Below are positions 15,036 to 15,641 of a stretch of DNA of 64,000 bases, piece by piece. The notes under the pieces are model-generated. The model was given only the letters and a program-made list of their open reading frames with translations, was not told where the DNA came from and searched no databases. The translations under genes and the position numbers were made by a program. The stretch is taken from contig JANRIP010000005.1 in the NCBI GenBank assembly GCA_033764855.1, forward strand, positions 102,240-166,239, written 5' to 3'. The DNA is from Hyphomonadaceae bacterium (GTDB taxonomy: Bacteria > Pseudomonadota > Alphaproteobacteria > Caulobacterales > Aquidulcibacteraceae). Each line of letters begins with the position of its first letter. Position 1 is the stretch's first letter.

Positions 15036-15146
15036 TTAATCTCGCCGTCATCCCGGCCGGAGACGCGCAGCGTCGTAGAGCCGGGACCCAGCGCCAAAAC
15101 TCAGCGCTCCGCACCCCTGGCTCCCGGCTCTCCCTCCGGTCGGCCG
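15036..15146. repeat. family-A nested-palindrome element (A2, diverged solo)
   Basis: Outer IR ccgtcatcccggcc / ggccgggatgacgg, arm hairpin gacgc-gca-gcgtc, degenerate inner IR gccgggaccca / ctggctcccggc. Confidence 0.7.
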
Positions 15147-15279
15147 GGATGACGGAGGTTTGGTGGTGAGGTGATGGAAGCTGCGGCCGCTAGCGTGCCC
15201 TTGGTCACATCGCCCGGCGCGGGGGCTGGGTAGGTTTGCTCATCGAAGCGATGACGCTTCGAGTTGAGGAGCAAACCAA

Positions 15280-15372
15280 ATGACCAAGTTTTACAGCCTG
15301 ATCGCCGCCTGCGCCGTGTTCGTTCCGGTGGCTTACGCCACCCTCGCACAAGCCGCGCAAATCGTCGCCTGA
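15280..15372 (+). CDS. 30-aa hydrophobic peptide, paralog 1
   Basis: ATG preceded by GAGGA 9 nt upstream and an in-frame stop 5 codons upstream. Encodes MTKFYSLIAACAVFVPVAYATLAQAAQIVA. Too short for the ORF track. Confidence 0.5.
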   Translation: MTKFYSLIAACAVFVPVAYATLAQAAQIVA

Positions 15373-15450
15373 TCGGCCCCAGCCTCAAAGCTCAGAGATT
15401 TTCCCATGACCAGGATGCAAGCCTTTTCCGCCGCCACTGAGAACCCATCC

Positions 15451-15543
15451 ATGGCGAAATTCTACGCCCTGCTCGCGGCGGTGATGGTGATGGCGCCGCT
15501 CGCCATGGCCACGCTCAGCCAAGCTGCGCAAATCGTCGCCTAA
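15451..15543 (+). CDS. 30-aa hydrophobic peptide, paralog 2
   Basis: Encodes MAKFYALLAAVMVMAPLAMATLSQAAQIVA, 20 of 30 residues identical to paralog 1 by manual alignment, with many synonymous differences. An in-frame ATG at 15406 would give a 45-aa form. No clear SD. Confidence 0.45.
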   Translation: MAKFYALLAAVMVMAPLAMATLSQAAQIVA

Positions 15544-15572
15544 TCCTTCCCGCGATCGAACGCAGCCAAAAA

Positions 15573-15606
15573 GGCCGCCGAGGATGCTCCCCCTCGGCGG
15601 CCTTTT
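15573..15606 (+). terminator. rho-independent terminator after the peptide pair
   Basis: ggccgccgagg / cctcggcggcc stem followed by tttt. Confidence 0.7.
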
Positions 15607-15641
15607 CTTGATGCGATCCTGATGCGCGGCGACGGAGCTGC

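Follow-up and report, generated by a model that had tools for sequence, protein, structure and literature searches.

Two open reading frames (ORFs) of only 30 codons lie in tandem on the forward strand of a 64,000-nucleotide stretch of Hyphomonadaceae bacterium DNA (contig JANRIP010000005.1; the whole stretch is referred to here as the window). ORF1 (15280..15372, +) and ORF2 (15451..15543, +) encode the 30-residue peptides MTKFYSLIAACAVFVPVAYATLAQAAQIVA and MAKFYALLAAVMVMAPLAMATLSQAAQIVA, respectively, and the locus raises the question of whether such short ORFs are real genes and, if so, how they are switched on and what their products do. Both ORFs, together with a Shine-Dalgarno (SD) sequence and a terminator, were found at the positions given in an original prediction made from the sequence alone, and its figure of 20 identical residues out of 30 between the two products was also obtained by hand count. 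Our analysis suggests, with a probability that we put at about 0.6, that the window holds one cassette of a family of small membrane peptides in Terricaulis/Vitreimonas-like Caulobacterales, switched by a CRP-type regulator that responds to a cyclic nucleotide (cNMP). Each unit of this family opens with a CAP-like palindrome and a TAnnTT box; next come a 5′ hairpin and a strong SD, then either a single peptide gene or two, with a terminator at the end.

The two genes belong to a multicopy family

The two window genes are real members of a new, unannotated multicopy family, with the consensus MTKFYALIAACAVFAPxAxATLNQAAQIVA. The original prediction had suggested a search of relatives for mini-ORFs of the type M.KFY...QAAQIVA, and such genes proved numerous: 246 were recognized in the harvested loci with a family profile hidden Markov model (HMM), and 173 by pattern. 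A degenerate DNA pattern for KFY-N18-QAAQIVA matched at least 112 stretches in genome contigs, and nearly all of the matches listed came from Terricaulis, Vitreimonas, or metagenome-assembled genomes (MAGs) labelled "Hyphomonadaceae" or "Caulobacterales". A profile search with the family alignment returned 286 clusters at 50% identity among 1.84 billion representatives; the matches invariably reached the C-terminus of the matched protein, and the named members were all annotated "hypothetical protein". The peptides had no match in Pfam, NCBIfam, PADLOC or PHROGs (E up to 10), the peptide motif had none in the literature, and Rfam returned nothing real for the window unit. Nor were family copies found in viral contigs or in plasmid or phage collections. 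The complete genome CP096134.1 carries at least 18 family genes at 10 or more sites. The commonest unit was a same-strand pair of genes 14–48 nt apart, and true single genes were also found.

Coding selection was analysed with 141 distinct 30-codon family genes. The median pairwise ratio of non-synonymous to synonymous substitution rates (dN/dS) was 0.26, the entropy of third codon positions was far above that of positions 1 and 2 at conserved residues, and a stop stood at codon 31 in every gene, as TAA, TGA or TAG. Ala10 (139 of the 141 genes) was encoded by GCC 90 times, by GCT 24, by GCG 22 and by GCA three times. The residues K3, A10, P16, A18, Q24, A25, A26, I28, V29 and A30 were near-invariant, with A18 in 139/141, and residue 20 was A, S or T in 128/141; residues 6, 11, 17, 19 and 20–23 were variable. 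Residue 19 differed with pair position, being Phe or Tyr in first genes and Met in second genes, and the window pair conformed. The earlier argument that the peptides, and not the DNA alone, are conserved was borne out by the synonymous variation, the fixed stop position and the dN/dS value, a check that the same prediction had proposed; reading frames and length were kept in relatives. These data show both ORFs to be genes of a translated type under purifying selection.

Family units occupied at least 15 conserved chromosomal sites, each common to 5–11 genomes. The flanks were unrelated housekeeping genes, encoding a dicarboxylate symporter, a UbiH-like oxidase, a radical SAM enzyme or PEPCK, with aminopeptidase N, LptE and a response regulator among the further neighbours. 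At the site in CP096134.1 that is orthologous to that of the window (locus L109), the upstream MFS transporter gene is kept and the downstream L,D-transpeptidase/MepK neighbour is not, and the first peptide retains variable residues particular to the first peptide of the window. The original prediction had described two tandem paralogous genes next to the L,D-transpeptidase/MepK cell-wall pair. A local paralogous duplication tied to those genes is not supported: with at least 15 unrelated contexts, that neighbourhood is one site among many and gives no functional clue, so that a function tied to the neighbouring cell-wall genes was rejected. Synteny, as the prediction had proposed to check it, thus held for the units themselves, which stand at orthologous sites across species, but not for the cell-wall neighbour.

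Typical units were also seen on two short contigs of non-alphaproteobacterial MAGs, L058 (labelled Binatia) and L102 (labelled Pirellulales), for which binning contamination is more likely than transfer.

A putative CRP-dependent promoter

A conserved CRP-type promoter, a structured 5′ leader and the linkage of the family to a crp gene had all been overlooked at first. A logo built from 91 units displayed the upstream motif cGTGaCC-nn-cGTCACAGCG, followed exactly 21 nt on by the hexamer TAssTT, with no indel. Logo positions G0, T1, C4, G9, A12, C13 and C16 were invariant, and the hexamer was conserved at T36 (87/91), A37 (90/91) and T41 (91/91). The TCACA of the box runs as far as position 14 of the logo, and the hexamer has A37 as its second base. 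In the window, the CRP/CAP-type palindromic box cGTGCC-CTTG-GTCACA occupies 15194..15209 (family consensus yGTGAC-N4-GTCACA, then GCG), and the −10-like hexamer TAGGTT lies at 15231..15236 (+), with its second base 22 bp after the box. This 22-bp spacing has been described as exclusive to Class II CAP promoters (PMC10187061), and the variable core of the family box, four bases between a C and a G, is similar to that of Clr sites (PMC10187061). Box and hexamer form a CAP-type palindrome at Class II geometry, with the site over the −35 region; the CRP-dependent start predicted from it in the window falls at about 15242–15243. The full motif was specific to the family: all 94 of its occurrences in the 898 kb of fetched loci were upstream of family genes.

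Distant units had the hexamers CAGAGT, CAAGTT and TATGGT, in which A at position 2 and T at position 6 were retained, as expected for a −10 element. No sigma-70 consensus promoter was present on either strand of the window unit, which fits activator dependence. Other promoter types were also considered. A sigma-54 promoter was rejected, as the GG/GC elements are absent at the right spacing, and so was an ECF41-type TGTCACA-N16-CGTC promoter, for which logo positions 31–34 were unconserved. An ordinary sigma-70 promoter with GTGACC as the −35 element would call for a spacer of 19 bp and for a −10 at positions 25–30, which are poorly conserved and lack a TA in some units; it was kept as a minority model only. 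The palindrome was not an RNA hairpin, since changes in its half-sites were uncompensated.

The box may have a longer history than the peptides. In a Caulobacteraceae MAG (L198:6119-6380), the box is followed at 22-nt spacing by TAGGCC and then by the gene for a longer, secreted-looking protein that is not a family peptide. From this arrangement, the box–regulator pair may predate the peptide family.

Linkage to a CRP-family regulator gene

In loci L116–L119, the gene immediately before that of a distant family member, P0116, has cNMP_binding and HTH_Crp_2 domains. The palindrome, here too at 21 nt from TAGGGT, contains the stop codon of this crp-type gene, and the crp–peptide pair is followed by genes for a class III nucleotide cyclase and a CpdA-like metallophosphoesterase. 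Orthologues of the regulator, at 57–75% identity, occur in genomes that hold the family, including CP096134.1. Across 80 crp loci, a family peptide gene was found 86–4,903 nt downstream on the same strand in 32, against a chance expectation of less than 1% (about one unit per 400 kb). The crp-linked peptides form an N-terminally extended subtype, MTATFATKFxSLxLAAAFFLPxAxAxLNQAA[QL]IVA. Another lineage has a family peptide gene with box and hexamer upstream of crp, and a perfect TGTGACCGCGGTCACA stands 35 nt before crp in Caulobacteraceae. The factor gene is located between ccrM and mutY in Vitreimonas and Terricaulis.

The closest solved homologue of the regulator was CRP of M. tuberculosis (E 6e-26), with the helix GASRE-VN in common. 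Among 81 orthologues, the recognition helix GASREKVNR was invariant, and the cNMP phosphate-binding cassette GEMAVLDGGxRSA was conserved in nearly all, a few differing at GG. CAP reads TGTGA through the motif R-E-x-x-x-R (PMC10187061).

Several further observations were made at crp loci. The cyclase encoded at L116:2479-4798 (also in L117 and L118) has a class III cyclase domain, one membrane span and a periplasmic FGE-sulfatase-type domain, and in L116–L118 the crp–peptide pair, the cyclase and the CpdA-like phosphoesterase form a compact cNMP module with an unusual sensor domain. At L130:2879-9905 and L179:2751-8217, crp lies between a CcrM-like methyltransferase gene (N6_N4_Mtase and RAMA domains) and mutY/dciA, and in L130 the crp-linked peptide gene is followed by those for an AI-2E-family transporter and a PEMT-like methyltransferase.

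Some crp loci lack a peptide gene and have the box and hexamer before an ORF-less stretch of about 150 nt, with a strong terminator at its end (L179:5919-6110, L194:5952-6140 and L132:5756-5950; also L123, L145 and L195). The stretch exposes an anti-SD-like CUUCUCCUUCCU and could be a candidate CRP-dependent small RNA that pairs with the peptide leaders; it had no match in Rfam. Weaker matches to box plus hexamer next to crp likewise precede this candidate. A spike in depth after crp in L176 turned out to be a genome-wide repeat and not an RNA gene.

A leader predicted to hide the SD

The RNA from hexamer to ATG is predicted to fold into a two-tier hairpin (15231–15290 in the window, −24.5 kcal/mol, z −5.3). 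The inner 5′ hairpin, TCGAAGCG-ATGA-CGCTTCGA (15243..15262, +), carries compensatory changes, from A-U to G-C in 12 sequences and from G-C to U-A or A-U in 11. In the outer stem, nucleotides that overlap the hexamer and discriminator are paired with the SD region: an anti-SD arm, GGTTTGCTC (15233..15241, +), pairs with GAGCAAACC (15269–15277), overlapping the SD, and covaries with the sequence before the ATG. The SD of ORF1, GAGGAG (15266..15271, +), lies 8 nt before the ATG and is kept as GAGGAGCAA in alignment A1.

RNAalifold found no more than part of the inner stem in a plain MAFFT alignment, so duplex energies and contingency were used to test the outer stem. Duplexes between an arm and its own partner were more stable than cross-duplexes (−9.81 versus −8.48 kcal/mol, permutation p < 0.0005). 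Where hexamer positions 3–4 were GG, CC preceded the ATG in 24/24 units, compared with 11/41 for CC hexamers (Fisher 1e-9). The outer stem contained 79 U-G pairs, which places the structure on the sense strand. With the outer stem, 87% of SD bases were paired, and 29% when the RNA lacked its first 12 nt.

Transcripts in metatranscriptomes

Family sequences were present in metatranscriptome assemblies. For the unit of one relative, L073 (MAG "PRO2"), 22 runs held 88–100% of the sampled words, and 16 of these runs were filed as RNA or probable RNA. In one wastewater metatranscriptome (run X39), unitigs of the coding region had a word depth of about 25,000, and the unitig over SD, leader, hexamer and box had 2,057. 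The diverging flanks stood at 228 and 131, and the crp gene of the same organism and its neighbours at 250–420, so that the unit, with two identical copies summed, had roughly 60–100 times the depth of its neighbours. High depth extended from just before the SD to the terminator, the boundaries expected of a sense mRNA. Depth rose between the hexamer and the SD, and the step at the inner hairpin's foot would fit either a start where predicted, with coverage lost at the 5′ edge, or processing. In runs X28, X29, X33, X37 and X38, by contrast, the L073 unit was at about flank level, with no excess. Expression of the unit therefore looks strongly conditional.

A proposed membrane-resident product and mechanism

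The peptides have a basic N-terminus (Lys3), 12–15 apolar, Ala-rich residues, Pro16-x-Ala18-x-Ala20 and a terminal T-L-x-QAAQIVA-COOH; residues 6–20 are all apolar. By inspection, the n-h-c layout of a Sec signal is present (MTK / FYALIAACAVFA / P-x-A-x-A), formally complete and with an excellent signal peptidase I site following residue 20, in keeping with the initial view of the products as Sec-type signal peptides with a short tail. Within the main subfamily, however, the apolar core is conserved residue by residue, which argues that the membrane helix itself is functional: the segment is under residue-specific purifying selection beyond the needs of a mere export signal. The product that we favour from these sequence features is a membrane-resident micro-protein with its N-terminus in and its C-terminus out.

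The following mechanism is proposed. A rise in cAMP or cGMP would cause the regulator to bind at about −41.5 and recruit RNA polymerase. The native transcript would start at the inner hairpin, which would lie 1–2 nt from the 5′ end and serve as a stabilizer, and its SD would be free and translatable. Read-through transcripts from upstream genes would instead carry the anti-SD, fold back on the SD and remain untranslated. The products would insert in the inner membrane with the Lys3-bearing N-terminus inside, each as a single Ala-rich helix with a mid-helix Pro, and with the QAAQIVA carboxy-terminus facing the periplasm. They might act in bulk, through helix contacts that depend on sequence, either among themselves or with a partner in the membrane; first and second peptides are consistently different at residue 19.

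Several points weigh against this reading. Cleavage by signal peptidase would explain the P-x-A-x-A motif no less well than a permanent membrane helix does. No gene for the regulator was found within the 64-kb window, and the suggestion that a cNMP-binding CRP-family factor regulates the family comes from comparative genomics only. The covariation statistics for the leader ignore shared ancestry, and the covarying anti-SD falls within the Class II −10/discriminator, which is in tension with a start downstream of the anti-SD. An alternative start at or before the hexamer, with the box as an operator, would need a poor promoter; two short RNA contigs, from X7 and X25, have their 5′ ends some 10 nt before the hexamer. 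Unitigs break at paralogue branch points and give mean depth only, which limits what they say about the start site. Contig depth is also a poor measure of expression, and the L073 and L086 units are identical, so that their depth is summed and the per-copy excess in X39 is reduced to roughly 30–50 fold.

Alternative explanations

An exported short peptide is a possible account, though in our view an unlikely one. Residues 1–20 would be a Sec/YidC signal, and cleavage by signal peptidase I after A18-x-A20 would free a decapeptide, T/S-L/M-x-QAAQIVA, to serve as a signal, as surface-active or self-assembling material, or as a ligand of PDZ-type or other periplasmic proteins; many copies and a strong switch would supply it in large amounts. 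The n-h-c layout is matched by Pro at −5, Ala at −3 (139/141) and A, S or T at −1 (128/141), and distant members vary in the core yet retain P-x-A-x-A and QAAxIV[AG]. The C-terminus is fixed to the residue, and the conditional transcript level is very high. The cut itself had been placed at LAQA in the original prediction, leaving AQIVA; the better-conserved site, P16-x-A18-x-A20|T21, would leave the decapeptide TLxQAAQIVA. Yet conservation of the core exceeds what export needs, with A10 in 139/141 genes through four synonymous codons and with K3, F4, Y5, L7 and F14 also conserved. No export, import or receptor gene is consistently adjacent, and with an intact cNMP cassette the adjacent regulator is unlikely to be a receptor for the peptide.

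A bolder version, which we hold to be improbable, combines these elements: a cNMP receptor would devote most of its regulon to one type of micro-protein, cut by signal peptidase into the QAAQIVA decapeptide and insulated by RNA fold-back. If true, it would be the first extracellular peptide signal or self-assembling material derived from a Sec signal peptide under cNMP-CRP control in a Gram-negative alphaproteobacterium, and fold-back insulation would limit translation to the CRP-fired transcript.

It is doubtful to a slightly greater degree that the peptides act like type I toxins, which would depolarize or permeabilize the inner membrane upon a cNMP signal and lead to growth arrest or dormancy. 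An SD-sequestering leader would normally block translation, and a shorter or processed RNA would be the active form. Size, hydrophobicity and multicopy, tandem organization are all as this would have it, as are the gating by a transcription factor and the 5′ structure over the SD. The abundant X39 RNA does not start until the 3′ foot of the inner hairpin, immediately ahead of the SD, and in some genomes the candidate small RNA behind the box next to crp bears an anti-SD. However, neither an antisense or adjacent antitoxin RNA gene nor an opposite-strand promoter was found in the window unit, and searches of Pfam, NCBIfam, PADLOC and PHROGs gave no toxin-family match. Two genes stand under one promoter, the tail is invariant and uncharged, and the individual paralogues retain both their sites and their particular variable residues from species to species. 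Transcripts at tens of times the level of their neighbours in a living community fit an abundant product more readily than a lethal one.

It is highly improbable that the cassette matters chiefly as RNA or DNA, for instance as a repeated regulatory RNA or a miniature mobile element, with incidental ORFs: the block of promoter, leader hairpin and terminator is conserved and present in many copies, but three-base periodicity, conserved frame and length, a varied stop codon at a fixed position and the low dN/dS all indicate coding, there are no terminal repeats, the sites are orthologous across species, and the plasmid, phage, viral and Rfam searches were negative.

Other identities were considered and rejected. 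A miniature inverted-repeat transposable element would be at odds with the lack of terminal repeats and the orthologous sites, and a leader peptide or attenuator with the unit's own terminator and with unrelated downstream genes in either orientation. Light-harvesting alpha/beta polypeptides were dismissed, as there is no His at conserved positions or in the window peptides, only at variable residue 23 in some members. For a lipoprotein, Cys11 occurs in only 82/141 genes and is too near the N-terminus. A precursor of a ribosomally synthesized and post-translationally modified peptide would call for a modifying or processing enzyme, and none recurred across at least 15 contexts. A Phr/SHP-type pheromone system lacked a linked RRNPP receptor or oligopeptide permease, the sole recurrent regulator being of the CRP family.

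Relation to known systems

The components of the proposed cassette, namely a CRP Class II promoter, a small hydrophobic protein and an SD-hiding leader, are of known kinds. For their combination, their copy number and a CRP-type regulator apparently dedicated to them, no description was found in the literature. The promoter resembles those of Class II CAP/CRP systems (E. coli CAP, M. tuberculosis CRP Rv3676, and CgrA and Clr of alphaproteobacteria) in its TGTGA-N6-TCACA-type palindrome and 22-bp spacing, and in a regulator with an R-E-x-x-x-R recognition helix and a G-E...R-S-A cNMP cassette. It is unlike them in that the full-motif boxes all precede micro-protein genes in the DNA sampled, in many copies per genome.

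With type I toxins (Ibs, Ldr, TisB, DinQ, ZorO and AapA1), the family has in common hydrophobic single-helix peptides of 50 residues or fewer in multicopy or tandem arrangement, transcription-factor gating (LexA for TisB and DinQ), SD-hiding leaders and shorter active RNAs. It differs in having two cistrons per promoter, an invariant and neutral C-terminus, and very high transcript levels that are apparently tolerated; neither an antitoxin RNA nor a sequence match to these toxins was found. The Phr and SHP (Rgg/SHP) peptides of Firmicutes also have tiny precursors, in which a basic N-terminus is followed by a hydrophobic body and the C-terminal part is conserved, and some family copies adjoin a transcription-factor gene. 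The host here, however, is a Gram-negative alphaproteobacterium, the neighbouring factor is of the CRP family with an intact cNMP site and not RRNPP, genes of the Opp or PptAB type are not linked, and the many copies are dispersed. Staphylococcal phenol-soluble modulins are comparable as several small, partly tandem peptide genes with one dedicated regulator and very high expression, but are amphipathic, have no signal-peptide layout, respond to AgrA and show no sequence similarity.

For the leader, the nearest parallel is the fold-back of IS10/Tn10. Davis, Simons and Kleckner (1985) are said to have found that sequence just 5′ of the element's own start pairs with the ribosome-binding site (RBS) of the transposase, so that only transcripts from the native promoter are translatable. 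The family version is suggested by covariation only, and the gene is not a transposase.

Genes so short are mostly missed by annotation or left "hypothetical", yet CP096134.1 has at least 18, and purifying selection on them is strong. A cyclic-nucleotide receptor linked to one amplified class of micro-proteins, whether membrane-bound or exported, would be an unusual shape for a CRP regulon, and the family offers a concrete handle on cAMP/cGMP signalling in non-model Caulobacterales. It is also a clean natural test case for RBS insulation by fold-back and for what becomes of signal-peptide-like proteins this short. With the peptide HMM and the motif of box plus hexamer, the family can be annotated systematically.

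Layout of the window unit and additional observations

Peptide gene 1 of the window (15280..15372, +) is of the first-of-pair type, with an aromatic residue at position 19, and matched the family HMM with E 1.1e-18. Peptide gene 2 is of the second-of-pair type, with Met at position 19, and can be read over 15406..15543 (+) as 45 residues from the ATG at 15406, or as 30 from that at 15451. A canonical inter-gene spacer (15373..15405, +) contains an SD-like CAGAGA (15393–15398), and in the 51 pairs compared a common AATTCGAGAGCAAACC precedes the second ATG. The spacer and the SD-like sequence before the in-frame ATG at 15406 suggest that ORF2 possibly starts there and not at 15451. On that reading, ORF2 would be a variant of 45 residues, 15 of them inserted after Met-Thr (MT-RMQAFSAATENPSMA-KFY...). 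The 45-residue call is present in a public protein collection (P0001), and as a query it matched a single annotated relative.

The intrinsic terminator (15569..15610, +) has a 15-bp stem, with arms at 15569–15583 and 15592–15606 that are 100% complementary, followed by a T run (−35.1 kcal/mol, z −5.0). As it is flanked by A residues, it could also act for the convergent ldtD-like gene. Terminator-like hairpins were found 3′ of 83 of 117 family units. Between the upstream gene and the peptide promoter lies a nested inverted-repeat element (15036–15160), with arms at 15045–15059/15141–15155 and 15077–15091/15117–15131; it is a genome-wide repeat, and its summed depth was very high in DNA runs as well as in RNA runs.

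Family genes were also observed in clusters of three to five, at L070:5764-6960 (five genes in L070) and L114:187-1141. Some have a different type of leader, with repeated GCATCCAAA / GCGCATCAA motifs round the hexamer, and terminators of their own. A second type of small hydrophobic ORF (e.g. MERPMLDFITPILALAPYLVILAALAAIPTDGVSGGGD) occurs just 3′ of peptide units at one conserved site (L007:448-564, L014:7471-7581 and L048:4372-4494).

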